64,000 nt of DNA from Nitrospinaceae bacterium (GTDB lineage: Bacteria > Nitrospinota > Nitrospinia > Nitrospinales > Nitrospinaceae). A program made the translations under genes and the position numbers. How positions within the stretch are numbered: the first letter of the stretch is position 1; each line of letters opens with the position of its first letter. The DNA lies in contig OZ245011.1 in assembly GCA_965223665.1 (NCBI GenBank), positions 2,048,001 through 2,112,000 of the forward strand. The letters are read 5' to 3'. The notes beneath the pieces were generated by a model. That model saw nothing but the letters and a program-made list of their open reading frames with translations. It had not been told where the DNA came from and did not search any database. Of the stretch, positions 3,030 to 58,542 are shown piece after piece.

Positions 3030-5912
3030 TCAAAGTTTGTTAATTTGCTGACGCGCAATTGAAATATTTTCCAATATCTCTTCAACCTCCGGGTGAGAAT
3101 CATCTAAAGTTTTTCGATAAACAGTCAACGCTTTTTCAAAATAAGAGATGGCTTTCTCAAATTCTCCTTTGTCGAAAAAAACTTTTCCAATGTTATTCAT
3201 TTGGAATGCCACATCCGGATGATCCTCCCCCAGGGTTTTTCTATGCAGTTCCAAACTCTTTTCCAAATAGCTTTCGGCTTTGTCTAAATCTCCTTTTTGA
3301 TACCAAGTTTGTCCCAGAATTAGATATTCCACTGGAACGTCGGGGTGGTTTTCGCCAAAATTTTTTAAATTGCTGTTCAAAGCTTTTTCTAAATAGGAAA
3401 CTGCTTTTTCCAAATTCCCTTTAAGAAGCCACATAGAACCGAGATTAGCCCAATCGGCTGCGACTGTTGAATGATCCTCTCCCCAAAATGCTTGGTGAAT
3501 AGCTAATCCCTTTTCCATATTACTAATAGCTTTATCAAACTCGCCTTTATTGCCCCAGGCCACTCCTAAAGCCGTCCAAATGCTACCAATATCAGGATGA
3601 TCTTCACCATAAGTTTTAATCATAGGGATCAGTGCCTTTTTATAATACTCAATCGCTTTATCATGCTGACCAATATTATCTAGAGCTTCACCCAAATTAT
3701 TCCATTTCACGGCCACTTGCGGATTATCTTCCCCCAAGTTTTTAAGGTCGCTTGCTATCGCCTTTTCGTAATACTCAATCGCTTTTCTATAGTTTTCTAA
3801 ATTAGACCAAACAACGCCCAGGTTGTTCCATACGATTGCTACTTGAGGATGGTCTGGGCCAAAATTTTTCAAGGTGCTTTCCAAAGCTTTTTCTAAATAC
3901 TCTATGGCTTTTTCATTTTCACCTTTTTTCCCTAAAGTTTCCCCAATATTGTTCCAGTCTCTTGCAACACTAGGGTGACCTTCGCCAAAGTTTTTAAGGT
4001 CAGCTGCAAGGGCTTTTTCAAAATGCATCAAGGCCTTTTCATAATTTCCTCTTCCAGACCAAACAGCCCCCATTAAGCTATCAACTTGGCTTTTGTCAGC
4101 CGGGTCCCCCTCAGGGGTGTTGAATTTCTTATCTAGTTTTTTACCCATTAGGGAATAGAGTCTGTCTCCGTGACCTGCTTCAATATAAGCCCGCAAAAAC
4201 TCTTGTTTACTTTTTATTTCCGGATGGCTTTTCGCAAACGCTCCCATATGTTTACGCAATTCTTCCTCTTCAGCTTGAAGTTCCGGATCAATATCACTTG
4301 AGCCCATTTCCAGCTCAGGGTTGAGACCTTTTGAATCCCATTTAAGTTGATTGTCTCCAAGAAAATCAACCTTTGTTTTGGAATTATTAGAGCCCTTGTT
4401 AAATTTATTTTTTCGATTTTTAAGTTTTAAAAATTCAGAGACAATCTCCTCATTCTCTGTTTTTTCCATAGGAGAATTTTTATCTGCTTGTTCACTCTCT
4501 TCTATGTTGTCAGTAATTTCCGGGCTCAAATTATTTGATTCAATGGCTTGTTCAGCTTCTCTAATTTGTTGCCTGAGAAAACCTATATCCGGATGATCTT
4601 CCTTCTGGTAAAAAAGGTTAACAGCCAGTGCATTTTTAAAATAATCGACTGCTTTAAAGTATTCTTTCTTTGCTATCCAATTCGTTCCCAAAGATTTTTG
4701 AACAGAAGCCACCTGAGGATGGTCACTGCCCAGGATTTTCATATCGTTTTCCAAAGCGCTTTCTAAATACTCAATGGATTTATTATTGTCTCCCATTATA
4801 TAAAAAATATTCCCCAGAGCTTTTTGACCTCTAGAAATATTTAGATGCCCTTCCTTGTAAACATTTTGATCATGAGCTAAGGCTTTTTCATAATAAGAAA
4901 TGGCCTTCTGTGTATCATTTTTTTCTTGCCAATACTTACCCAAACTTAACCATAGTTCAGACACTCTCAGAGGAAGCTTTCCCATCCCATTGATACCGTT
5001 TTCAACCTTTTCAAAAAAGCTAGCAGCTTTGTCTTCCTCATCTCTCAAAAACCAAACCTCTCCCAAATAGCTATAATCCAGAAATACGTTAAAATGATTT
5101 TCGCCGAAATTTTTTAAATCACTGCTTAAAGCTTTCTCAAAGTATTCTGTTGCTGGAATCAAATCACCTTTGTCCTTATTTGCTAATCCAAGGTACTTCC
5201 AATCTCGCGCAACTCTGGAATGATTTTCTCCAAAATTCTTAAGATCAATAGCCAAAGCCGACTCTAAATATTCTAATTCCTGGACCCTGTCTCCTTTAAA
5301 GTTCCAAACCTTTCCTATATTTATATATATATCCGCCATGTAGGAATGATCTTCCAGAAAGGCATTTGAAGTACTCTTTAAAGCTTCTTTAAAATATTCG
5401 ATAGCCAACTCAAGGTCCATCATTAAAAAATAAACCTTACCCAGTTCGTTCCAATCCCGAGCTACATTGAGATGGTCTTTGCCAAAATGTTTCACATCGC
5501 TGGCTAAAGCTTTCTCCAAATATTCAACCGCCTTATCATATTGCCCTTTTTCCCGCCACACTTGTCCAAGGTAATTCCAATCGGTGGCGACTTCTGGATG
5601 GTCTTCTCCATAATCCTTGAGATGGGCCGCCAACTCTTTTTCGAAAAAGGCAATCGCCTCATCGTAACGCGCTTCCTCAAGGTACTGTTCACCTAACGTT
5701 TTGTTAGAATCTTCCGGATCAATGTGAAAGGTTTCTTTATTGGGTTTGTCAACTTCTTTAGGTATGGGAGGATTGGAATCATTCGTTGAAGAAGCTGGAC
5801 CAGATTGGAGGGACTTAGAAACATCGTCACTATTCTTCTGTGTCCCCGCACAACCGTTCATAAGAAAAGTCGCTGCAACTAATAATGTAAAAATAACTTT
5901 TGAGTTAATCAT
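3030..5912 (-). CDS. Large two-block TPR lipoprotein
   Basis: Lipobox MNGC, two TPR blocks separated by a linker. True start is ATG 5912, overlapping the upstream stop (ATGATTAA). Confidence 0.88.
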   Translation of the reverse strand: MINSKVIFTLLVAATFLMNGCAGTQKNSDDVSKSLQSGPASSTNDSNPPIPKEVDKPNKETFHIDPEDSNKTLGEQYLEEARYDEAIAFFEKELAAHLKDYGEDHPEVATDWNYLGQVWREKGQYDKAVEYLEKALASDVKHFGKDHLNVARDWNELGKVYFLMMDLELAIEYFKEALKSTSNAFLEDHSYMADIYINIGKVWNFKGDRVQELEYLESALAIDLKNFGENHSRVARDWKYLGLANKDKGDLIPATEYFEKALSSDLKNFGENHFNVFLDYSYLGEVWFLRDEEDKAASFFEKVENGINGMGKLPLRVSELWLSLGKYWQEKNDTQKAISYYEKALAHDQNVYKEGHLNISRGQKALGNIFYIMGDNNKSIEYLESALENDMKILGSDHPQVASVQKSLGTNWIAKKEYFKAVDYFKNALAVNLFYQKEDHPDIGFLRQQIREAEQAIESNNLSPEITDNIEESEQADKNSPMEKTENEEIVSEFLKLKNRKNKFNKGSNNSKTKVDFLGDNQLKWDSKGLNPELEMGSSDIDPELQAEEEELRKHMGAFAKSHPEIKSKQEFLRAYIEAGHGDRLYSLMGKKLDKKFNTPEGDPADKSQVDSLMGAVWSGRGNYEKALMHFEKALAADLKNFGEGHPSVARDWNNIGETLGKKGENEKAIEYLEKALESTLKNFGPDHPQVAIVWNNLGVVWSNLENYRKAIEYYEKAIASDLKNLGEDNPQVAVKWNNLGEALDNIGQHDKAIEYYKKALIPMIKTYGEDHPDIGSIWTALGVAWGNKGEFDKAISNMEKGLAIHQAFWGEDHSTVAADWANLGSMWLLKGNLEKAVSYLEKALNSNLKNFGENHPDVPVEYLILGQTWYQKGDLDKAESYLEKSLELHRKTLGEDHPDVAFQMNNIGKVFFDKGEFEKAISYFEKALTVYRKTLDDSHPEVEEILENISIARQQINKL

Positions 5913-45686: not shown

Positions 45687-46124
45687 TTATTTTATTTTTT
45701 CAAGCAATTCAGCGGCAATGAGCCAACCATCTACTCCGCGCCAGTTTTGAGAAAGTTCACTTGGTGTCCCTGGCATTATCATAACTCCCTCTCCCCCACC
45801 CCTAAGAACTTCATCGGAATCCACAAATCGAACTTCAGCAAAACGATTCACAAATTCTTTTTCATTATTTATACCGTCTTGGAGTGGACGAAGAGAACAA
45901 CCTCCACAATGACTTCCATCATTGTCACACTGCCGAGTTTTACAATATTTAAAAACATTTTTAAGATCATAAATGGAAATTTTTTCTGACAAAGAATTTA
46001 AAAATGAATCAATACCCTCGTGCTTACAATCCAACACAATATCAAAAACCGTAAGCTTAGTTCCTTCTAAGTGAGGGTTCTCATTAATTTGGTTATTCAC
46101 AATCACATATCGATATTCTGGCAT
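45687..46124 (-). CDS. Putative Rhs immunity protein, DUF433-like N-terminus plus Cys cluster
   Basis: I.NNQI.ENPHLEGTKLTVFDIV...ISIYDLKNVFKY, then CKTRQC..HCGGC. TAATG overlap with the Rhs stop. Confidence 0.7.
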   Translation of the reverse strand: MPEYRYVIVNNQINENPHLEGTKLTVFDIVLDCKHEGIDSFLNSLSEKISIYDLKNVFKYCKTRQCDNDGSHCGGCSLRPLQDGINNEKEFVNRFAEVRFVDSDEVLRGGGEGVMIMPGTPSELSQNWRGVDGWLIAAELLEKIK

Positions 46125-47432
46125 TACAATCCACTCTTTAAAATACGTAAAATATCATCAAAGTTTCGAACCCTTGAATCTACCTGAATGGCATTATTTC
46201 CAAACCCCTGACCGATCTGACGTCCACGATCTCTAGTTAAAACCTTTGCACCAATTTTATTTGCAAGCTGATTAATTGCAGAATCTCCAACATCTTTTCC
46301 AAAAATTTCACTTACAGATCGAACATTAAATCCATTAACACGGAGTATATCAACTAAGCCTTTAGCCTCCAAGTTTGTATCAAGAATAATTGGGGTTCCT
46401 GAATCTGAAAAACCTGCTTTCTTTCTCAGAATCGCCCTAGTTGTATTGACTAACGACCCGAAATTTTTAGGATTTTTTCCAAATCCACTAATGAAATTAA
46501 AAATCTTTGAAAAAAAGTTCTTAATGGGATTTTTCCCAATACTAACCAAAACTCCAGCGATTCCTATTCCAACTTTCCCAATTGAGGCAAAATCATAAGG
46601 AGCAAACAGAGGATCTTCAAGACCCAATCCATCAAAAGCACCAGTATAAGAAGATTCGAATCCAAAAAAATGAACATTTTTATCCAAATTGAGACCTCCC
46701 AATAAATTTGGATTACTTGATTTTTCAGCAAAAGGATTTTTGAGATCAGCAAAATCAAGAACTTCGCCATATCGACTATAAACACCACCTTGAATTTCTC
46801 CTACAAACCCCTGTCCACCTCCATCCAGACCTCCACCTAAATCATAGGAGAACGGTTCATATTCAAAGTGCCGAGAGATATCGCTCAAATGCCGCTCCCT
46901 GGAATTACCGCCTAAATAACCCCCTCCAAAACTGTAATCAGGGAAACTTCCTGAGGGATCGGTATAAATAATGGGGTTGTTGCGGACATAGCTGTAGCGG
47001 TTCAAATCCTGTGGGTTGAACGGATCCGGCACAATGGAATCGGATTGAATAAATCGTCCTAAATTTGGATCATAGTAACGCGCCTCATAGAAATAGAGAT
47101 CGGTACTGTCGTCCAACTCCTTGCCGGTGAATTTGTAGCGGGAATTAAACGGCCCGTCATTATCGTTCACCTTGCCGTAAGGATAGTAAGAAACATCCTG
47201 GACATTGTTTCCATTGCTGTCGGTGACCACACTTGTAGAACTCAGGTGATCATCGTGAAAATACAACGGGTTCGTGCCGTTGGAGTTCATCTGCGCAATA
47301 CGAAAGCCACCGGCAAAAATAAAATTGATGCAATTTCCGTTCTCACAAACATGAAGTTGACCGATGTAAATGGTATCGACACCATTAACGGTTTTTTTCA
47401 CGCGACCGCCGTCCCCGTCGTACTCAAACTTG
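46124..47432 (-). pseudogene. rhs: 5'-truncated (orphan) Rhs core with C-terminal PIN-like (DUF5615/Mut7-C-type) toxin domain
   Basis: YDGDGGRVKK, DHLSST, FTGKELD, ARYYDP.LGRF, LNRYSYV.NNP..YTDPSG. C-terminus ILDTNL...LR..GF.V.SV...D..I...A......VLTRDR. Confidence 0.88.
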
Positions 47433-48124
47433 GTGACATCGGCGGCGGTAATCAAAATCCGCTGCGGTCCAACATTCCTCTGCAATGGATGCTGCAACAT
47501 GCGCTCGATGCCGGAGTGCCAGTGGATATGGAAAAAGCCAAGCAGGATAAATATCGAAAAATCGATCCGGGGGCAAAGATCAGCGAGAATAAAGATGTCC
47601 AAATCGATCCGCGTCGTAAAGTGTTTGCTAACGATGACATCGACGCCAGCGCGCAGCCGCTGAAACTTGCGGTGGGTGTAGAACACACCTGCACCGTGTG
47701 GGCGGAGCTGAAGTACAACTGGTCCGGAGTGGCGCTGGAAAAAGGCGGGAAGTATAAAGTGTCGACCGCACCGGGAGATAAGTGGGCCGACGATGAGATC
47801 ATCCGCGGACCGGAAGGCTGGGCCACGTTTGAACTGGATCCGGTGGATCGCGAATTTATAAAACTGTTTGAATCCCGGCGCCGGCATCCGCACGGCAACT
47901 GGATGGAACTGATCGGTTCTTATGGCGATGAAGACGACCACCTGATCCGGCTCGGTGATGCCGAGCAGGGATGCGAGTTCGAAGCAGAGCACAATGCCGA
48001 CCTCTACTTGTTCGCCAACGATTTAAAAAAGAAGTACGCCAACAACAGCGGCGATTTAAAAGTTACCATCACCCGCACCGCGTGACGCTGCCAGGCCCCG
48101 CCTGGCGGGAGAATTGATTTGCGA
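47433..48124 (+). repeat. Near-identical duplicate of the 3' half of the DUF2235 gene and its downstream hairpin (43715-44406)
   Basis: Constant offset of 3718 bp (stops at 44367 and 48085), few substitutions. Lacks the GFSRG catalytic half. Confidence 0.93.
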
Positions 48125-48313
48125 TGACTGGCTGGCCGCCATGGACCACTCGCCGTGGAGGCAACTTATATTTACGATTATCCTCAGTGGACGCAAAGTC
48201 CTCAGAAACTTTTTAAAAGTTACGACCTTCACAAAAAAATCTAAAAAGGAAAGTCGAAGCGCTCCCTCTTTTTAAAGAGGGCTGGGGTGATTTTCCTCTG
48301 TTTCTTGTAAAGC

Positions 48314-48775
48314 TCATAAAATATTTTTCATACTTAAAGGGAACATATTTAATATATTCCATAGACCAATTATTGAATTACCCGCTGGAGCCCAAATGAA
48401 TTGGCCGGTTCTTTTTAACTCGAGCAATGTGCATTTTGTTTTTATGTCTTCTGGAGGAGCTCCCGGAGGAAGATAAATCATCTTTCCCCCTGGAACATCC
48501 TCAATGTTCACCAACACCAGTTTTTTGTCGTAAAAAGAGGCCACGGCTCTAGTGCCCATAGCAGTCCATTTTTCTTCACTCTCCCAGAATATGATTACGG
48601 GATAAATATTTTCGGGTATCGTTTTAATAATTATGTTGGCCCGTTCAGTGGAAATATCAGAAAACTTAAAACATTGTTCTCCAAATATTTTATGCTTTCC
48701 AGCTTTCCAAAGAATTCGGTTACTGTACCACTCATCTTTTTTCTGAATTTCTTCCATATCTTCTTTCATATTCAA
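48314..48775 (-). CDS. Hypothetical protein (orphan immunity candidate)
   Basis: 153-aa AT-rich ORF in a string of small co-oriented genes. Confidence 0.6.
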   Translation of the reverse strand: MNMKEDMEEIQKKDEWYSNRILWKAGKHKIFGEQCFKFSDISTERANIIIKTIPENIYPVIIFWESEEKWTAMGTRAVASFYDKKLVLVNIEDVPGGKMIYLPPGAPPEDIKTKCTLLELKRTGQFIWAPAGNSIIGLWNILNMFPLSMKNIL

Positions 48776-48812
48776 ATCAATTTAATCTGCTTCATTTAAT
48801 CAAGTGGCAATA

Positions 48813-49103
48813 TCAAAGTTCTACTTCTTCCCAGGGGGAAGATTCGTCTTTGCGGACGATGGCCAGGTTGGCGGGGGTGTCGATATATTCCTCAAGTGTC
48901 GGTTCAATTTTTAAAACATCCTCCACCGAACACACTTTCGCGTTTTCCCAGTCTTCCTCGTCGGTCGAGTTACACAAAAATTGCCAGCCGCTGTCGTATT
49001 CCTCTTCCGGTTCATCGCGAACGGCTAACAGTATCGGTGATTTTCCTTCCGCAATATGCGAACACAACACCACTGCCAATTCTCGACCAATCTTCTCTTC
49101 CAC
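48813..49103 (-). CDS. DUF2185/Imm33-like immunity protein
   Basis: PILLAVRDEP...DSGWQFL...E.D......V......IEP. Confidence 0.75.
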   Translation of the reverse strand: MEEKIGRELAVVLCSHIAEGKSPILLAVRDEPEEEYDSGWQFLCNSTDEEDWENAKVCSVEDVLKIEPTLEEYIDTPANLAIVRKDESSPWEEVEL

Positions 49104-50894: not shown

Positions 50895-51617
50895 ATGAAG
50901 ATAACCACAACTCACTTTAAATTCACCCGGGTCGGTTCAAGATTTCCCGTCCTGATATTTTATATCACTGCATCGTTGACCCTGTTATTCGGTTGTTCCA
51001 CTCCGGCCAAACTGGAAACTCGTACCGTAGCAAAGGAAGAAATCCAGGAACCCATCAAGATGAAAAAAACCAAAACGTTTCAGCTTGGAGAGATAATACT
51101 TGGATTCGATCATGGAACTGTCATCGGAACCAAGAAATCGCTGTTATTAGGACTGGTGGGTTGTGTCGGTTCCGAGAAAATTAAATGGGAAGGTAAAACC
51201 ACAATCACTCAAGATAATTTTTATGCTATTTTTTACGACGAATTTCGCCGGGACGGTTACCAGGTTTTAGGCGACCCGCGTGAACTCTTTCCTCCCAAAA
51301 ATCCGGAAACTCCAGAGTTGGTCGTCGGCGTTAAAATTCTTAAGGCAAAACTTGATCATTGCTCCGACAACCAAAGTTTATATTCCAAAAGAGATGTGAC
51401 CTTAAAAATTCAATTTGAATTTTATTCCGTAAGTTTAGAAAAAGTAATGTTTGAAATTATTACGGAATCTTCCATTACAGGGTATGAGAACGGGACGGAA
51501 TTAGGGGCTTTCCTGGAAACCTTTCGCGGAAACGTGAAACAAATTATTCAGGATGAAAAGTTCAATGAGTTTATTAAATCAGGGTCTGAAACCCCGTCAC
51601 CCTTTATTAAAAGCTGA
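50895..51617 (+). CDS. Hypothetical lipoprotein, paralogue of the previous gene
   Basis: Lipobox LFGC. Shared FY..F...GY.V, YS.....V.FE..T and D..FNEFIK. Confidence 0.72.
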   Translation: MKITTTHFKFTRVGSRFPVLIFYITASLTLLFGCSTPAKLETRTVAKEEIQEPIKMKKTKTFQLGEIILGFDHGTVIGTKKSLLLGLVGCVGSEKIKWEGKTTITQDNFYAIFYDEFRRDGYQVLGDPRELFPPKNPETPELVVGVKILKAKLDHCSDNQSLYSKRDVTLKIQFEFYSVSLEKVMFEIITESSITGYENGTELGAFLETFRGNVKQIIQDEKFNEFIKSGSETPSPFIKS

Positions 51618-51914
51618 GAGGAGAATGAAAGGCCCGCTCCAACCAACACGTTCCATCAACCCGAATTTAAGCCAAATAAACTAAAGCTCAATTAACGTAC
51701 GCGTGGGTTCCTTATATAACAGGGACCTTCTTAAAAGAGACTGCTTTTTATAGGCCGGGGAATGCAACGGCGGAATCTCTGCGCTCACCTTCACCGCCCG
51801 TGTGTTTAAAATCGTTATTTTATATTTTGTTTTATTGGGTTTCGTATCCATTTTAATTCTAAAGCTCCATACGGTTTGACACATTTTTTTAAACGGCATT
51901 TTTCCAACATCCCT

Positions 51915-53360
51915 TTAATCTTTATTCGATACCACCACTTCATATTCCCCTTCGATGAGTGGACTGGGCAGTTTTCCCGCACCGAGGCTTTGCAAAAGTT
52001 GTAAAGGCTCGCAGGGAAACCGCACGCGCGTTTCCTTGTTCTCAATGACAGATTGGTGCACAGCCATTTCATAATTCAGAAGTGCGTATAACAAGGGATC
52101 GTTTAACGGTTTTTTATCCTGCATAAAGTCGTTGAAAGCCTGCGCTTCGTCGGAGGCAAAAAGATGCGGCACTGAATCCTTCCAAAAATATTCCATCAGA
52201 TTCAATAACGCTTTCTCTCCATACCGCAGCATAATGTAGCGACAGGAATACTTCAGACAGTCGATCAGTTTTCCCTTCTGCACGCTTGTGATCAATTTGC
52301 GATAGATCTTTAAACCCTCATCCTGTTTTAAACTTTCGGCAATGGGTTCCTGAGTCGGTTTGCCCAGCACCAATGCAGATAAGGTTTGTTCCCATTCAGC
52401 TTGTGTGGGTTCCATGGGTTCCTCCATATTCTCTCGGCTTAAAATGTTGCCACGGGTTTTAGACGTGAGACTTCGAATGGCTCTTCGGTTCCACATTTTT
52501 TTGATTTGTTTAAATTGGGTCACAATCGATTCCATCGAAATGTTATTCGCATAAATGTATTCGGGAAAAATTTCAAAGATCACCGCCTTCAGGTTAGGCA
52601 GTTGAGGAATGATTTCCAACGCCACCTCTTCCACTTCTTTCGGAATCAAATTGGAGTGCGCGTCCAGTAAGTAATCTTCAAACCGCTCGCCGCCGGCTAA
52701 ATGTATCTCCCACACTCTATCCAGGGGAATCGATTTCAAAACATCCCGAACTTTTTCGCGGCCGTTGACCTCGTTGCACCAAAGGTTATGCAGATCCAGC
52801 AGGATCCCGCAATCCGTTTCCTCGGCGATCCTTGCAAAGAACTCACCATCTTTCATTTCACCGGGCTGGGGTTTTAAATAATTCACACCCGTCTCAAACG
52901 CCACCGGAACCGGAAGCCGGTTTTGAAATTCACGAATATTTTTACAAGCCGTCTTTACGGTTTCCTTACTTTGAATCGGGGGTAACAAAAATCCCGTATG
53001 GTAATTTTCATCACCATAACTCACTTGATTAAAACTCAAATGTTCGCTGACCCATGGGGAGTTGAATGCCTGAATTGTTTCCAATAATGGCGGCAGTGAA
53101 AGAGCATCCGGCGGATGCGTTCCCCCAAAGGGAAACCCTACTCCGTGGATCAATTTGGGCAGTTTTATTTTTTGGAGAGTGGACACCGCCTGTGGGTCCA
53201 GAGAATATTTAACCGTTCCCTCCTTATTTTCTTTCAACCAAAAATTAGACGGTTCAATCTCTACCAAATCAATAAGCCCCTGCAGGGCCTCGACCACCCG
53301 ATCGAGGCCTGCAAAGTAGATCAATCCCACTCCTAATTCAGGTAGAGGTCGCACAGTCAC
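51915..53360 (-). CDS. DUF692-family multinuclear non-heme iron oxidative enzyme (MNIO) with fused C-terminal partner-like domain
   Basis: LGVGL, IHGVG, WVSEHLSF, LLPP, FETGVNY, GILLDLHNLWCN, EIHLAGG, DAHS, IFE. About 180 extra C-terminal residues. Confidence 0.92.
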   Translation of the reverse strand: MTVRPLPELGVGLIYFAGLDRVVEALQGLIDLVEIEPSNFWLKENKEGTVKYSLDPQAVSTLQKIKLPKLIHGVGFPFGGTHPPDALSLPPLLETIQAFNSPWVSEHLSFNQVSYGDENYHTGFLLPPIQSKETVKTACKNIREFQNRLPVPVAFETGVNYLKPQPGEMKDGEFFARIAEETDCGILLDLHNLWCNEVNGREKVRDVLKSIPLDRVWEIHLAGGERFEDYLLDAHSNLIPKEVEEVALEIIPQLPNLKAVIFEIFPEYIYANNISMESIVTQFKQIKKMWNRRAIRSLTSKTRGNILSRENMEEPMEPTQAEWEQTLSALVLGKPTQEPIAESLKQDEGLKIYRKLITSVQKGKLIDCLKYSCRYIMLRYGEKALLNLMEYFWKDSVPHLFASDEAQAFNDFMQDKKPLNDPLLYALLNYEMAVHQSVIENKETRVRFPCEPLQLLQSLGAGKLPSPLIEGEYEVVVSNKD

Positions 53361-53362
53361 CT

Positions 53363-53584
53363 CTACTTGCCAAAGGGTGCATCAATTACGAATTGTCGCT
53401 CAATGTCGTAACGGATGTCCCATCCCGACGTACAACCTTCACAACCCAGACGCCCTAAAACGGTCTTTTGGATTTCATTGAATTGCTTCAAATTGTAATA
53501 GGATGAAGCGGGGATTTTAACTTCCACCACATTGTTCATTCGTGGTCCAAATCCGTGAGCATTGACTGTAATTTTTTCTGGCAT
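53363..53584 (-). CDS. 73-aa putative RiPP precursor with LGRLGCEGCTSGWD motif
   Basis: RBS AAGGGAGGG, ATG 53584, stop 2 nt before the MNIO GTG. The only two Cys form a CxxC. Confidence 0.75.
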   Translation of the reverse strand: MPEKITVNAHGFGPRMNNVVEVKIPASSYYNLKQFNEIQKTVLGRLGCEGCTSGWDIRYDIERQFVIDAPFGK

Positions 53585-54556
53585 AATGTTTCCCTCCCTT
53601 AAAAGGTAATTAATAAAAATTGGCAATCATTCATTCTTAAACAACCGCCAGGTTTGCCACAGCAAACTTGATGATCTCTCCTCTTCCCCCAGGAAGAGGC
53701 GGCATGGACTGGGGGTGTATCCGTCTATTTTTTAATGAGCCTGTCGGGCGATTGTGTTGAGGTCCACCCCGCTAACTCACGATTTCATTATAGTTTTCGA
53801 GGAAAAAGAAAATATCGTACAAACCATATTTCATTTGTCATAGTCACAATGACACACGAAAAGGCACAACTTTGAGGTCGGATTTTGAGGTGGGAAAGAT
53901 TTCGTAAGGCCGGCATTAAAAAAATTTATCTTTAGTTGACGACTTACGGAAAACAATTTATGAGAGCGAAATAAAGTTTTTGTAAAAAACCTTTAGCACA
54001 CATAGGATCGATGATTTAATTGGCAAGTCATCCGGATTAAAATCGCAGTAGATTTCAAGTGAGAGTCCTCATTCTTTTCCGGACTCGCAAACCTTCCATT
54101 TCCAAAGTATTGCTTTCAAACTAAAATTAGACCCTCACAGAGGGCGGTGAAACGGAAAAATTTCCCTCAAAAATTTCATAATTATTTGTCCAATTTTCTA
54201 AACAATTTGCTGTCAAAAACAGTGGAAAGTTTTATCTAAAAAAAGACTACAAATTTTCTCTAACTCTGCGAAAATCAATAGAATTCGCAACGACAAGCAA
54301 CATAACTTCTTTACAATCAACCACATAAAACAAAGCCTTAGTTTCTGAAGGCCAGAAGAACGACTCCAGCCTTCCTTCAAAATAGTTCGGATGGGGTAAC
54401 TTTTGGAAAAAATTTGACGGTTTTATCAAAATATTAAAAAGTTTTGTTCCTTGACAACCTGAAACCTTTATGGATTAATATGCGCTAAGCCCATTTGGGG
54501 TATATCTTGAGGGGAGATTTTTAACTCATTTTACTTTTCCTGGGGAGGAAAACCAC

Positions 54557-55747
54557 ATGCAACGAACGCTCAGTTTAATCATCGGACTCATTCTACTTTT
54601 CACCACCGTTCCGGCTTTTGCCGTGACGGATGTCTTCACCAACCCGGAAGACAGTTATATAAGAATCACTTCTCGCACTGCAAATTATGGTTCAGAAAAT
54701 GTTCTTATCGCAGATGGGGTTGGGCTGGATCCCGACAACGGGAAACTCAATGAAGTTGCCTCCCTCATTCAATGGGATATTTCCTCTATTCCTCCGGGGG
54801 CAACAGTAACCGCAGCTAAAGTCACTTTAAATTTTACCGACTCCAGTTCCGGCCCCTATAATTTTCATTCGCAATTTTCTCCCTGGGCAGAGAGTACTGT
54901 TACCTGGAATGATTTTGATCCGGATACAAATATATTAGGAACTATTCCCCCTTCTACTTTTGGTATCACTTCCATTGAGTTAAATGCCAATGGGATTGCT
55001 GTGGTTCAAGGTTGGGTGGACGGTTCTTTTCCCAACAACGGTTTAGCGATTCGGACCGGCGGCACTAATAACGGAATTAATATGGATTCCAAAGAATCTG
55101 GTGGAACCATCCCAACATTAGAGGTGACTTATACAAATGATAACCCACCCACTGTCGAAAGCTTGCTTATAGAAATCAATAAGCTCAAAGGCTTATTGGC
55201 GGGTGCCAAACGAGAGGGGAATACTCTGGTCCTGGAGGGGATGAACCTGCAAATTATCAGTGGGTCGGGTGCTACCAATGGAAATCCCGATAGCCCCGCA
55301 AATACTGAACCAGAACAAACCGCCGTGAATGGCCTCGGAAATATAATTGTCGGATATAACGAATCCGTTTCATCTCGGCCTAAAAGTTATTCAGGTTCTC
55401 ACAATATTGTAGTGGGCAATGACCATAGTTTTTCCAGTTTCGGGGGACTGGTGGTAGGACGGAGCAATACCATTTCCGGGGTTTTTTCCAGTGTGAGTGG
55501 GGGGCAGAATGGCACAGCAAGCGGTAGATTTTCAAGCATAAGTGGGGGAGTTAGCAATATAGCCAGTGAATTCAATTCCAGCGTTTCTGGTGGACTTCAA
55601 AACCACGCAAGCGGAGCACATTCCAGTGTTAGCGGGGGATTATATGGAACTTCAAGCGGACTAGGTTCCAGCCTTAGTGGAGGAAACAGCCGGACCGCTT
55701 CCGGTAACAGTGACTGGGTCGCGGGAAGTTTGTTTGAGAGTTTTTAG
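54557..55747 (+). CDS. Secreted DNRLRE-like + SSVSGG repeat protein (5 repeats), array member 1
   Basis: Family architecture, ends DWVAGSLFESF. Confidence 0.87.
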   Translation: MQRTLSLIIGLILLFTTVPAFAVTDVFTNPEDSYIRITSRTANYGSENVLIADGVGLDPDNGKLNEVASLIQWDISSIPPGATVTAAKVTLNFTDSSSGPYNFHSQFSPWAESTVTWNDFDPDTNILGTIPPSTFGITSIELNANGIAVVQGWVDGSFPNNGLAIRTGGTNNGINMDSKESGGTIPTLEVTYTNDNPPTVESLLIEINKLKGLLAGAKREGNTLVLEGMNLQIISGSGATNGNPDSPANTEPEQTAVNGLGNIIVGYNESVSSRPKSYSGSHNIVVGNDHSFSSFGGLVVGRSNTISGVFSSVSGGQNGTASGRFSSISGGVSNIASEFNSSVSGGLQNHASGAHSSVSGGLYGTSSGLGSSLSGGNSRTASGNSDWVAGSLFESF

Positions 55748-55852
55748 TTAGGAATCAAAATATACTTAGAGGGGAGATTATTTAACTCATTTTATTTTTC
55801 CTGGGGAGGAAAACCGCATGAAGCAGTCACTTAGTTTTTTCATAGGAATCAT
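55711..55852 (+). repeat. 142-bp exact direct repeat (second copy 57155-57296) spanning gene end, spacer and next gene start
   Basis: Base-by-base comparison, offset 1444. Confidence 0.9.
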
Positions 55853-57191
55853 TCTACTTTTCACCACCGTTCCGGCTTTTGCCGTGACGGATGTCTTCAC
55901 CAACCCGGAAGACAGTTATGTGCGAGAAAGTTCTCCCGACACAAACTATGGATCCGAACCCGTTCTCATCGCCGATGGGGTTTCACAGGACCCGAACAAT
56001 GGAATTTATGGAGAGGTCGCGTCTCTCGTTCAGTGGGATATTTCCTCTATTCCCTCCGGTGCTACAGTAACTGGAGTTTCTATAACCTTCAACTTCTCCG
56101 ATGCCAGTTCAGGTCCCTACAATTTGCATGTGCAGAATACATCCTGGTCGGAAGGCTCTGTCACTTGGAATGAACTGGACTCGAGCGCAGGTATATTAGG
56201 AATCATTCCTCCTTTTTCATTTGGTGCGGTTTCAATACCTTTAAATACTGATGGAATTGCCTTAGTGCAAGGTTGGGTGGATGGATCTATTCCTAATAAT
56301 GGATTAGCCATTCGCACCAGCGGTACCAATAATGGAATAATGGCAAACTCCATGGAATCTGGCAACACTGGACCTGTGTTAAACGTGTCTTACAACACCA
56401 GTGATCAATCGCTGGAAGAACGAGTAGCGTATCTCGAAAACTTATTGGCTAATCTAACGCGAAATGGAGACGAGCTAATTTTGGAAGGGATGAATTTTCA
56501 TATCCGCAACGGACTTGGAGCCACTAATGGGAACCCATCTGATCCCGATAATGATTTCAATGAAACGGCTATCAATGGAAAAGGAAATTTGGTCATCGGT
56601 TACAACGAAGATATTCACCCTTATAACTTTTCTGGAGAACCTGCTTCGGATAAATCGGGTTCACATAATGTGATCATTGGCCACGGGCACAATTACAGCA
56701 GTTTCGGCGGATTAGTGGTCGGAAAAGACAACTGGATCAGCCGCCCATTTGCCAGCATCAGCGGAGGAAGAGAAAATGTTGCAAGTGGCAGATTATCCAG
56801 TGTCAGTGGAGGGTTTCGAAATACTGCAAGTGGAGATATATCCAGTGTCAGTGGTGGAACTAGAAATAATGCAAGTTCATTTGTCTCTAGTATCAGTGGC
56901 GGTGAGTTCAATATTGCTAGTGGTGTTGTGAGCAGTATTGGTGGAGGCTCTAAAAATATTGCAAACGGCTATAGTTCAAGTGTCACTGGTGGCGAGTCAA
57001 ACAATGCAAATGGCGATATGTCCAGTGTCACAGGTGGCGCGGGGAATAATGCAAACGGAAATAAATCTAGTGTCGGAGGTGGAGGCTCGAATAACGCCAG
57101 TGGCCTTGAATCCACAGTCAGTGGAGGCCATGCGCGAACTGCCCCAAATAGTAATGACTGGGTCGCGGGAAGTTTGTTTGAGAGTTTTTAG
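55818..57191 (+). CDS. Array member 2 (9 repeats)
   Basis: Family architecture. Confidence 0.87.
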   Translation: MKQSLSFFIGIILLFTTVPAFAVTDVFTNPEDSYVRESSPDTNYGSEPVLIADGVSQDPNNGIYGEVASLVQWDISSIPSGATVTGVSITFNFSDASSGPYNLHVQNTSWSEGSVTWNELDSSAGILGIIPPFSFGAVSIPLNTDGIALVQGWVDGSIPNNGLAIRTSGTNNGIMANSMESGNTGPVLNVSYNTSDQSLEERVAYLENLLANLTRNGDELILEGMNFHIRNGLGATNGNPSDPDNDFNETAINGKGNLVIGYNEDIHPYNFSGEPASDKSGSHNVIIGHGHNYSSFGGLVVGKDNWISRPFASISGGRENVASGRLSSVSGGFRNTASGDISSVSGGTRNNASSFVSSISGGEFNIASGVVSSIGGGSKNIANGYSSSVTGGESNNANGDMSSVTGGAGNNANGNKSSVGGGGSNNASGLESTVSGGHARTAPNSNDWVAGSLFESF

Positions 57192-57261
57192 TTAGGAATC
57201 AAAATATACTTAGAGGGGAGATTATTTAACTCATTTTATTTTTCCTGGGGAGGAAAACCGC

Positions 57262-58542
57262 ATGAAGCAGTCACTTAGTTTTTTCATAGGAATCATCTTA
57301 TTTATTACCAGTGTCCCGGCAATTGCACAACAGTCTTTTGACATTCAGGAAGACAGCTATGTGCGCAGCACATCCCCCACCTCTAACTACGGAACCGATA
57401 CTGTTTTAATCTCAGATGGTGTGGCACCTGATCCTGACAATGGGAAATACGGAGAGGTGGTCATGCTCCTGAAATGGGACCTCTCAGTCATTGATTCAAG
57501 AGCTGAAGTTCATTTCGCTCGTTTATTCTTTAACTCACTGGATGCCAGCTCTGGTCCTTATTATGTTTATGCTCAAAACTCCCCATGGTCGGAGAACTCG
57601 GTCACTTGGGAAGACCTGGATCAGGGAGGGACAATCATTGGAACAATTCCAGCATTTACATTTAATTATGCATTGAATACATCCAATATCCTTTTGAATG
57701 ATGATGGAGTTGCCTTGGTGCAAGGTTGGGTGGATGGATCAATTCCCAATAATGGATTTATCATCCGCAGCAGCGGCACCAATAATGGAATTAAAATGGA
57801 TTCTAAAGAATCCAATGTAGCGCCGCCTAGACTATCGGTTGGCTATTCCGGAGAAACTACTTTATTGGAATTGAAAGCAAGAGTCATTGAGCTCGAAAAA
57901 CTATTGGCTGGAGTGACACGTAACAACAACAATATACATTTTTCCGGAGTCAATGTTCACATTGACAACGGACTCGGCGCTACCAATGGCAATCCCAACA
58001 ATCCTGAAAGCGACAGTACCACTGAGGTCAACGGACTGGGCAATTTGATTGTGGGTTATAACGAAGAGTTTCATAATCCTGCTTTAAATGATAAATCCGG
58101 TTCACATAATATTGTAGTGGGTCACGGGCACACTTACTCTGGTCTGGGTGGACTGGTAGTAGGAAAATACAATTTAATTACAGGCTTATACTCCAGTGTT
58201 GCTGGCGGAAGAGGAAACACAGCTAGAGGACTATTTTCAAGTGTGAGCGGAGGCAATGCCAACGTTGCAGAAGGCGATTTATCCAGTATTCTTGGAGGAG
58301 ATGATAACTATACTGTCGGGGCTTATTCCGCAATCAGTGGCGGCAGATATAATGAAGCTAGAGGGCCCTCTTCAACTGTAAGCGGAGGGACGCTTAATAC
58401 CGCAACGGGTGATAGCTCTTCTGTAAGCGGTGGTTCAAATAATAAAGCCAATGGGACCAAGTCCACTATTAGTGGAGGGGACAATCGAACTGCTTCTGGT
58501 TTATACGACTGGGCCGCAGGGAGTTTGTTTGAAGATAACTAA
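57262..58542 (+). CDS. Array member 3 (7 repeats)
   Basis: Family architecture. Confidence 0.87.
   Translation: MKQSLSFFIGIILFITSVPAIAQQSFDIQEDSYVRSTSPTSNYGTDTVLISDGVAPDPDNGKYGEVVMLLKWDLSVIDSRAEVHFARLFFNSLDASSGPYYVYAQNSPWSENSVTWEDLDQGGTIIGTIPAFTFNYALNTSNILLNDDGVALVQGWVDGSIPNNGFIIRSSGTNNGIKMDSKESNVAPPRLSVGYSGETTLLELKARVIELEKLLAGVTRNNNNIHFSGVNVHIDNGLGATNGNPNNPESDSTTEVNGLGNLIVGYNEEFHNPALNDKSGSHNIVVGHGHTYSGLGGLVVGKYNLITGLYSSVAGGRGNTARGLFSSVSGGNANVAEGDLSSILGGDDNYTVGAYSAISGGRYNEARGPSSTVSGGTLNTATGDSSSVSGGSNNKANGTKSTISGGDNRTASGLYDWAAGSLFEDN

Follow-up and report, generated by a model that had tools for sequence, protein, structure and literature searches.

We analyzed a stretch of 64,000 nucleotides from the genome of a Nitrospinaceae bacterium (assembly GCA_965223665.1, contig OZ245011.1, positions 2,048,001 to 2,112,000 of the forward strand), here called the window, and focused on two adjacent genes on its minus strand. 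The first encodes a small protein with two cysteines, P0001, and the second encodes P0002, an enzyme of the MNIO family (formerly DUF692) that carries an additional C-terminal domain. Our results suggest that the two genes probably constitute a self-contained module in which the enzyme would modify the small protein. The features of the locus, in coordinates of the window, are as follows.

53363 to 53584, minus strand: gene of the small protein P0001 (73 amino acids), the putative MNIO substrate; coordinates include the stop codon and come from the open reading frame (ORF) and its translation.

53592 to 53598, minus strand: Shine-Dalgarno sequence GGGAGGG, 7 nt 5' of the P0001 ATG, read from the sequence.

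53408 to 53455, minus strand: conserved Cys loop, codons 44 to 59 of P0001, GRLGCEGCTSGWDIRY, identified by column counts and the structural model.

51915 to 53360, minus strand: MNIO (DUF692) gene with a fused partner domain, P0002 (481 amino acids), stop codon included.

52485 to 53360, minus strand: MNIO catalytic core, approximately residues 1 to 292 of P0002, delimited by the PF05114 match, matches in the Protein Data Bank (PDB) and invariant ligand positions.

51918 to 52448, minus strand: predicted fused TglI/DUF2063-like partner domain, residues 305 to 481 of P0002, modeled as seven helices followed by a strand-helix-strand unit.

The P0001 ORF opens with an ATG at 53584 to 53582, runs for 73 codons (53584 to 53366) and closes with a TAG stop codon at 53365 to 53363. 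After a gap of only 2 nt (53362 to 53361), the P0002 ORF begins with a GTG at 53360 and continues for 481 codons to 51918, followed by its stop codon at 51917 to 51915; P0002 is translationally coupled to P0001. The same Shine-Dalgarno sequence is conserved at a related locus, L001, found in a metagenome-assembled genome (G018) that is labeled Nitrospinaceae bacterium and was scored as belonging to the same genus. The ORF coordinates and the GGGAGGG sequence bear out the original prediction for this DNA, which had described a 73-residue ORF with its own ribosome-binding site (RBS) lying 2 nt before a DUF692 gene. The GC content of the module, 0.44 to 0.45, is like that of its surroundings, and composition gives no sign of recent transfer.

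P0002 matches the Pfam family PF05114 (MbnB_TglH_ChrH) over residues 28 to 257 with an E value of 1.4e-42 and a score of 146.2 bits against a cutoff of 25. Its matches among PDB sequences include 3BWW (E value of 7.9e-21), TglH (1.8e-19) and MbnB (4.1e-7). Nine residues of P0002, namely, H72, H107, E156, D189, N192, H220, D233, H235 and E263, are identical in these three proteins wherever they are aligned. Among 31 members of the clade to which P0002 belongs, eight of the nine are invariant (31/31) and H235 is present in at least 90%. We take these nine positions to be the iron ligands, on the basis of the MbnB and TglH structures. The alignment to solved MNIOs and the conservation within the clade agree with the earlier claim that the H/E/D metal-ligand motifs are kept. 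The sequence AFETG is found in P0002 where 3BWW, TglH and MbnB carry ENT, ENA and ENY, respectively. This deviation had been pointed out beforehand, and it proved to be a trait of the clade and not of this copy alone; because ETG is the clade consensus, with ENG or ENA in a minority that includes the same-genus relative, the Thr is not regarded as a defect of P0002. The best 120 homologues of P0002 listed are full length (41 to 48% identity, 96 to 99% coverage), with PF05114 as the sole Pfam family. When P0002 was scored against the NCBIfam equivalog models for MNIOs, it reached 123.4 for BufB (cutoff, 310), 96 for ApyH (400), 91.5 for HvfB (360), 84.7 for ChrH (600) and 31 for MbnB (325). In a plasmid collection, 500 records contained MNIO cores and none of them covered at least 80% of the fused enzyme.

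Approximately 180 residues extend past the MNIO core after a variable linker (about residues 292 to 320), and they are well conserved in the 31 clade members. Residues 301 to 481 gave no match in Pfam even at an E value of ≤10, and the DUF2063 Pfam signature was absent from all 120 listed enzyme homologues. An AlphaFold2 model of residues 305 to 481 was obtained with confidence (predicted local distance difference test score [pLDDT] of 92, predicted template modeling score [pTM] of 0.80). When this model was compared with 350,542 PDB chains using Foldseek, the top four matches were NGO1945 (3DEE), which is a DUF2063 "PME-type 1" structure, TglI (8HCI_A and 8HI7_A) and MbnC (7DZ9_C). The figures of the structural comparison, in table order, were 12.8 / 160 / 3.1 for TglI, 10.0 / 113 / 2.7 for NGO1945 and 5.3 / 126 / 4.7 for MbnC, with 4.3 / 99 / 4.5 for the next unrelated chain. 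These matches support the proposal, already contained in the original prediction, that the extra domain of about 180 residues is a fused partner, and the model identifies it as a TglI/DUF2063-like "PME-type 2" partner joined to the MNIO. The accompanying statement that MNIOs need a partner was too strong, as DybH, ChrH and MovX are reported to be active without one (PMC13056109).

P0001 contains exactly two cysteines, C48 and C51, both within GRLGCEGCTSGWD, just as had been claimed from the sequence alone. Its N terminus, MPEKITVNAHGFGPRMNN, is hydrophilic and without a hydrophobic stretch, and its C terminus (...DAPFGK) has no Cys. A word-index search with P0001 returned P0001 alone, and an exhaustive HMMER search was needed. 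With phmmer, 186 homologues were found at an E value of ≤1e-3 among 1.84 billion representatives, 24 of them at ≤1e-10; three long matches (P0173, P0219 and P0221) lacked the motif and were set aside as spurious. A profile built from 50 homologues retrieved 598 proteins at an E value of ≤1e-3 (3,516 candidates), all annotated as hypothetical and none with a Pfam domain. P0001 itself belongs to no family in Pfam or NCBIfam, a PDB profile search gave nothing below an E value of 0.35, and the nearest clusters in the ESM Atlas scored 0.83 to 0.85, which is under the trust level, and offered no family.

The family shares the motif L-G-[C/H]-x-x-C-x-S-G-x-D-I-R-F. Columns were counted in a hidden Markov model alignment of the small proteins together with the locus translations, comprising 395 unique domains. 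Position 51 is a near-invariant Cys (393 domains), and G47 (393), S53 (387) and G54 (393) are conserved to a similar extent; D56 is found in 369. Position 48 is Cys in 362 domains and His in 30, while position 52 is Cys in 212, His in 78, Phe in 41 and Thr in 40. The commonest loop is C-[P/L/M]-A-C-x-S-G, with the Pro in 96 domains and the Ala in 240. A strand with the pattern V-x-V-x-x-P-A and a helix, both conserved, precede the Cys loop; the first 15 residues or so are variable, and conservation spans approximately residues 20 to 68 of the predicted folded domain. The AlphaFold2 model of P0001, built from 141 sequences, is moderately confident (pLDDT of 72, with 80 to 89 in the core) and places in order a strand, a second strand, two helices, the Cys loop (residues 47 to 55) and a final strand. 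Two-domain forms of 124 to 250 residues account for 66 of 262 family proteins. Two peptide matches occur in 7 of 80 loci fetched from metagenomes (described below); in those with an ORF listing (L026/L027/L029 and L078), the matches correspond to tandem genes. When a 12-residue window with a mean Kyte-Doolittle value of ≥2.0 ahead of the conserved domain was taken as a signal-peptide-like segment, none of the 262 family proteins contained one. Together with the hydrophilic N terminus of P0001, this upholds the earlier assertion that a signal peptide is absent.

The association of the two genes was examined in metagenome loci that had been retrieved by the peptide-motif pattern only; among 150 pattern matches, 110 encode a relative of P0001, and 80 of these loci were kept. 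A homologue of P0002 lies shortly 3' of the peptide gene on the same strand in 73/80 loci in tblastn searches at an E value of ≤1e-5, and in 75/80 at ≤1e-3. The seven loci without a match at ≤1e-5 have only 40 to 236 nt of contig left past the peptide gene. Among the 75 enzyme-matched loci, 44 extend to enzyme residue 462 or beyond and 30 stop at the end of the contig, and the enzyme is the long fused form wherever it is visible. The survey runs from peptide to enzyme and not from enzyme to peptide; as an indirect check in the reverse direction, the lists of enzyme and peptide homologues (120 entries each) were compared, and for 16 entries of either list the longest contig had exactly the same length as for an entry of the other. 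The pairing is far above chance. Two checks proposed with the original prediction, that peptide homologues should keep the motif and that they should co-occur with DUF692 genes, therefore came out in its favor, as seen from the 387 to 393 domains that retain G47, C51, S53 and G54 and from the 73 loci with an enzyme, the other seven being cut short by the contig end.

A Pfam scan of 93 flanking ORFs from 27 loci revealed no third gene that recurs. A recurring transporter or protease was not found in these neighborhoods, nor were DoxX, sigma or anti-sigma neighbors among the 27 loci, and the gene 3' of the enzyme is variable and often on the opposite strand. In the window, the module is flanked by lipoprotein-like ORFs, a toxin/immunity cluster and CBM96 proteins. 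The module therefore stands alone. The supposition that no transporter or protease is adjacent, and that the product may stay inside the cell, has thus held over the 27 loci as well as over the 262 family proteins devoid of signal peptides.

The genome that contains the window (4.35 Mb, 98.6% complete) harbors a single PF05114 gene and a single copy of the small gene. The module is rare within the phylum: of 120 genomes, only 2, which belong to a single genus, contain the peptide and the long enzyme, and five other genomes harbor ordinary short MNIOs with 31 to 34% identity. Named members of the family come from Pseudomonadota (alpha, beta and gamma), Actinomycetota, Cyanobacteriota and Acidobacteriota as well as from this Nitrospinaceae genome. 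The module is widespread over several phyla.

The interpretation that we favor, with a probability of about 0.6, is that P0001 and P0002 form a two-gene, self-contained protein-modification module. The fused partner domain would dock the small protein, and the Cys loop would enter the iron site of the presumed TIM-barrel core, where an O2-dependent oxidation would rewrite the near-invariant Cys51 and possibly also Cys48. The pairing of the genes, the precursor-like position of the small gene, the translational coupling, the duplications and the fused domain of a recruiting type all point to the small protein as the substrate of P0002, an assignment that we regard as very probable. Because Cys51 practically never varies, it is taken as the modified site, and this is probably correct. 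MNIOs are described as acting mostly on Cys, and the modification of whole proteins by such enzymes is either known or has been proposed (PMC12452194; PMC13056109), and a four-electron oxidation to a 5-thiooxazole or an oxazolone-thioamide is reported as their commonest outcome on Cys, each 5-thiooxazole bringing a mass change of -4 Da and absorbance near 305 nm (PMC13097082). The likeliest product in our case would be a heterocycle that lowers the mass by 4 Da and is of the kind found in 5-thiooxazoles or oxazolone-thioamides, and a cross-link of the CxxC pair like those made by ChrH and DybH would be less likely. Thiooxazole-type oxidation works on single cysteines and therefore fits the 30 domains with His48, but we put forward thiooxazole-like chemistry only tentatively. 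The product would be neither cleaved nor exported and would remain an intracellular small modified protein, plausibly one that binds metal. Positions 48 and 52 exchange Cys and His as metal ligands do, and for this reason the finished loop is thought to bind metal, a role that is conceivable although somewhat short of probable.

A number of observations weigh against this interpretation. Prediction of a complex between P0001 and P0002 gave a median score of 0.32 (runs of 0.08, 0.32 and 0.48) versus 0.01 for the best control; at least 26% of contacts were common to the runs, and the partner had a pLDDT of at least 38. In the calibration of this method, 58 of 80 solved complexes attained the mark, as did 2 of 110 mismatched pairs, and scores of ≤0.60 include just 7 of the 80 solved complexes together with both passing mismatches. 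The prediction lends the interpretation weak support and is given little weight, and the partner's own fold appears uncertain within it. In its model, P0001 has the appearance of a folded domain rather than of a leader-core peptide, and the swapping of Cys and His would equally suit a plain metal-binding accessory protein. All five equivalog scores of the enzyme lie far under their cutoffs, so that its chemistry cannot be transferred from any of these subfamilies. As for the survey of loci, the 80 include at least 8 that, from their ORF layout, are apparent near-copies of another locus, and this redundancy was kept. At locus L073, the enzyme match (540 to 965) ends at residue 142 although the contig continues for another 309 nt, which may reflect a frameshift, a truncation or a chimeric contig. 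Finally, in L001, the only close relative, the enzyme is 77% identical to P0002 and retains all invariant residues, and the ORF upstream of it (3771 to 3995) is intact and 54% identical to P0001, with Gly at both Cys positions. Its loop is rewritten to PGGEGGTSGRDNGC, compared with LGCEGCTSGWDIRY in the window, and it is one of just two domains among the 395 without Cys51. The L001 enzyme being intact beside a Cys-less ORF, an intact enzyme can coexist with a Cys-less partner. Relative to the window, pN (the proportion of nonsynonymous differences) is 0.25 for the small protein, twice the 0.12 of the enzyme, with synonymous sites saturated. The L001 copy may be a substrate gene in recent decay; alternatively, it may mean that the enzyme acts on something else or that the small protein serves as an accessory.

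Three other explanations were considered. That the 73-codon ORF arose by chance, or that it is a leader of the MNIO gene and is not translated, might be suspected from the word-index search that returned P0001 alone, from the lack of a Pfam or NCBIfam family and from the presence of the small ORF in only 2 of 120 genomes of the phylum. This notion is already refuted by the homologue searches (186, 24 and 598 proteins at the thresholds given above) and by protein-level conservation, with invariant G, C, S and G positions over 395 domains, and it is further at odds with the strong RBS and with a pN of 0.25 that lies well under the pS (synonymous) of 0.67 against the L001 counterpart; dN/dS ratios from this comparison are unreliable owing to saturated synonymous sites (pS of 0.58 to 0.75). 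We give it next to no credence. The small protein might instead be an accessory of the MNIO, such as an Fe/Cu/Zn chaperone, an Fe-S/redox partner or a regulator, holding metal through the C/H-x-x-C-(C/H) loop and possibly forming a dimer, with the true substrate elsewhere. The Cys/His swap at positions 48 and 52, the predicted compact beta-alpha-beta fold in place of a disordered peptide, the two-domain forms (66/262), which would bring two loops together, and the same-genus relative with an intact enzyme beside a Cys-less copy are all consistent with such a role. It nevertheless seems unlikely, since recruitment of the peptide substrate in TglHI and MbnBC is carried out by a domain of the type fused here (8HI7 and 7DZ9 among the top matches) and the small gene is the sole gene that always accompanies the enzyme. 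The position upstream of the MNIO is, as described by PMC12452194, the canonical one for a precursor. Moreover, the genome offers one PF05114 gene, one copy of the small gene and no conserved alternative Cys-rich neighbor, and no similarity to a metallochaperone or Fe-S scaffold was detected in Pfam or NCBIfam or, below an E value of 0.35, in the PDB profile search.

It is similarly improbable that the players are as we propose but that the chemistry resembles that of ChrH and DybH, with the C-x-x-C cysteines joined as a macrocycle with a hydantoin heterocycle and not converted singly. This alternative nevertheless deserves to be taken seriously, because the commonest loop, C-[P/L/M]-A-C-x-S-G, shares the C-x-x-C-x-x-G spacing of the CPxCGxG/CPACGMG motifs of ChrA/DybA, and ChrH-family enzymes are reported to carry an extra C-terminal helical domain, to need no partner and to modify proteins of 30 to 40 kDa (PMC13056109). 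However, the first Cys is replaced by His in 30/395 domains, so a two-Cys reaction is not universal in the family, and the ChrH score of P0002 (85 versus a cutoff of 600) is below even its BufB score (123). According to the published descriptions, the extra domain of ChrH is a helical bundle of approximately 7.8 kDa, whereas that of P0002 is approximately 20 kDa and TglI-like, and ChrA has its motif at the C terminus of a precursor with a signal peptide, whereas the motif here is internal and no signal peptide is present.

Judging from sequence and models, the module resembles TglHI, BufBC and ChrH in outline, combining an MNIO and a recognition module with a putative substrate that bears Cys, but falls outside each characterized subfamily. 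With TglH-TglI of the 3-thiaglutamate/pearlin pathway of Pseudomonas syringae (8HI7/8HCI), P0002 has in common a partner fold of the TglI/DUF2063 type. The partner domain of P0002 is fused and shorter (177 versus 268 residues, the alignment spanning TglI residues 2 to 206), and no further pathway genes are conserved around the module in the 27 loci. TglH is described as acting on a C-terminal Cys (PMC13056109); in P0001, by contrast, the cysteines are internal, the protein is predicted to be folded and it ends in Lys. The captophorin/bufferin systems (BufB-BufC, HvfB-HvfC and FonB-FonC) combine an MNIO with a DUF2063-RRE "PME-type 1" partner and install 5-thiooxazoles on Cys. They are the closest by NCBIfam score, BufB being the best-scoring model for P0002, and are reported to modify Cys, in some cases on small proteins, to give products that bind metal (PMC13097082; PMC12452194). 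P0002 nonetheless lies under the equivalog cutoffs for both BufB (123.4/310) and HvfB (91.5/360), no separate PME-type 1 gene accompanies it, and its residues 301 to 481 have no DUF2063 match in Pfam (E value of ≤10). Captophorins are, moreover, described as periplasmic products of precursors with Sec signals (PMC12452194), in contrast to 0/262 in the P0001 family. The module shares with ChrH/DybH the C-x-x-C-x-x-G spacing, an extra C-terminal domain of the enzyme's own, the lack of a separate partner and a minimal operon of peptide and MNIO, and ChrH-type enzymes are reported to be able to modify whole proteins (PMC13056109). It differs in the NCBIfam score (84.7 versus 600) and, as ChrH is described, in the extra domain (TglI-like and about 20 kDa versus a helical bundle of about 7.8 kDa) and in the location of the motif, which is at the C-terminal end of ChrA, in precursors with Sec or lipoprotein signals, and internal in P0001 (residues 48 to 54 of 73). 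The family motif, C-x-x-C-x-S-G, also departs from CPxCGxG in having C/H/F/T and not Gly at position 52 and in having His for the first Cys in 30/395 domains. MbnB-MbnC of methanobactin biosynthesis is a weak relative (E value of 4.1e-7 for MbnB in the PDB; NCBIfam score of 31 versus 325), and methanobactin comes from a short precursor peptide of the leader-core type, which undergoes cleavage and export. Compared with a classical cluster for peptides that are made by the ribosome and modified after translation (RiPPs), there is no leader/core precursor with a conserved protease or exporter, and conservation covers approximately residues 20 to 68 of a predicted folded domain.

Similar proteins have been described in silico. 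Antoine et al. (2025, Microb Genom; PMC12452194) reported putative precursors with Cys motifs and without signal peptides upstream of small MNIO clusters. Among these, "adjamnio-7" (cluster #7 of the MNIO sequence similarity network) has a CxxC motif and is represented by a protein from Novilysobacter spongiicola, with an AlphaFold model in their Fig. 5b, and "adjamnio-1" (cluster #1) is represented by a protein from Massilia sp. CF038 and has separate PME-type 2 partners. Separately encoded PME-type 2 partners are in fact described for both clusters #1 and #2, where they were found via the ORF after the MNIO gene (PMC12452194). Like adjamnio-7 and adjamnio-1 as described there, P0001 carries a Cys motif, lacks a Sec signal and is encoded immediately upstream of an MNIO gene; a fusion of MNIO and partner is not mentioned in the main text of that survey (PMC12452194). 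The P0001 family includes a Marilutibacter/Lysobacter member (WP_237053067.1), and the enzyme relatives include, among the matches listed, five Massilia species. Neither of the adjamnio representatives (WP_078758616 and WP_073215760) is among the named P0001-family members retrieved, and an attempt to link the family to Massilia, the adjamnio-1 organism, failed, no enzyme of the fetched loci being more than 62% identical to the Massilia enzymes. Because the partner is fused here and separate partner genes are described for cluster #1, we lean toward adjamnio-7; going by the published description, the P0001 family probably corresponds to adjamnio-7, an unproven identity, and less likely to adjamnio-1. 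In our literature searches, the term "adjamnio" appeared in no other paper, and they returned only this in silico survey and no experimental study of such a module. The original prediction had called the precursor unlike those known. This claim to novelty is lowered, because CxxC proteins without signal peptides upstream of a small MNIO cluster are described in the 2025 survey (PMC12452194). From its sequence features, the module appears to be a compact variant of MNIO systems with a fused partner and a predicted folded, cytoplasmic, uncleaved putative substrate and not a categorically new kind.

One further feature lies upstream of the gene pair.

53690 to 53850, minus strand: conserved noncoding block, a possible promoter, operator or 5' leader, 147 nt of which align with 87% identity to the corresponding position in the same-genus genome.

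This block of approximately 150 nt is more conserved relative to the same-genus genome than is the adjoining peptide gene. It is present in a single copy in its own genome and absent from the other 118 searched genomes of the phylum. It may be a promoter, an operator or a leader, and whether it belongs to the module is uncertain. Rfam gave nothing for the block at an E value of ≤1, and over positions 51500 to 54600 the sole match was a subthreshold small RNA (E value of 0.98). The RNA fold of the upstream region is unremarkable (z score of -1.83). Sigma-70-like hexamers are found at 53841 to 53814, in a scan for promoters and terminators that yields no more sites than shuffled sequences do. 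A 13-bp hairpin with a T-run is located at 53650 to 53621, immediately 5' of the P0001 RBS.

Several observations concern the neighbors of the module. Genes for Peptidase_S66 (LD-carboxypeptidase) flank 3 of the 27 loci (L005, L043 and L044), on both sides in L043 and L044, and a stand-alone Condensation-domain gene lies upstream in another three (L032, L050 and L067). Both may be lineage-specific additions and are too few to be called conserved. Histidine kinases with tetratricopeptide repeats occur in 2 of the 27 loci. In the window, positions 46124 to 49103 (minus strand) contain a 622-residue ORF with a stretch "...YDPNLGRF..." near its end, which we take to be an RHS-core-like motif, followed by a variable C terminus. 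It is followed by small ORFs, including one with a match to the Imm33 immunity domain (PF09951; E value of 3.9e-12), and the region has the appearance of a polymorphic-toxin/immunity cluster that has no relation to the MNIO pair. Positions 54557 to 58542 (plus strand) contain three tandem paralogous genes for proteins of 396, 457 and 426 residues, with signal-peptide-like N termini, long Gly/Ser/Asn-rich repeats and the ends "...WVAGSLFESF/WAAGSLFEDN." A CBM96 carbohydrate-binding module (E value of about 1e-12) was found in the first two paralogs, which were the two scanned.

Among the MNIO systems considered here, most are described as making exported Cys-derived metal binders (methanobactins, bufferins and oxazolins), and a minority as making cleaved natural products. 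The module studied here has the leanest MNIO architecture in our comparison, consisting of one small protein and an enzyme with a built-in helper, with no export or processing genes. This raises the possibility, which we consider somewhat less likely than not, that the invariant Cys of a folded, nonexported miniprotein is converted inside the cell to a thiooxazole- or thioamide-type group, with positions 48 and 52 as a built-in metal or redox site and with recognition through a fused, truncated partner domain and not a leader peptide. Such a protein would be either an equivalent, in the cytoplasm, of the captophorins that buffer copper in the periplasm or a new cofactor derived from a protein. 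The near-invariant G-C-x-x-C-x-S-G loop provides a clean handle for mass spectrometry and mutagenesis, and the pair would, if our interpretation is true, be a tractable two-gene system for how an MNIO and its partner domain recognize a folded substrate. Should the small protein indeed be modified and remain in the cytoplasm, MNIOs would serve, beyond natural-product biosynthesis, in the posttranslational maturation of intracellular proteins.

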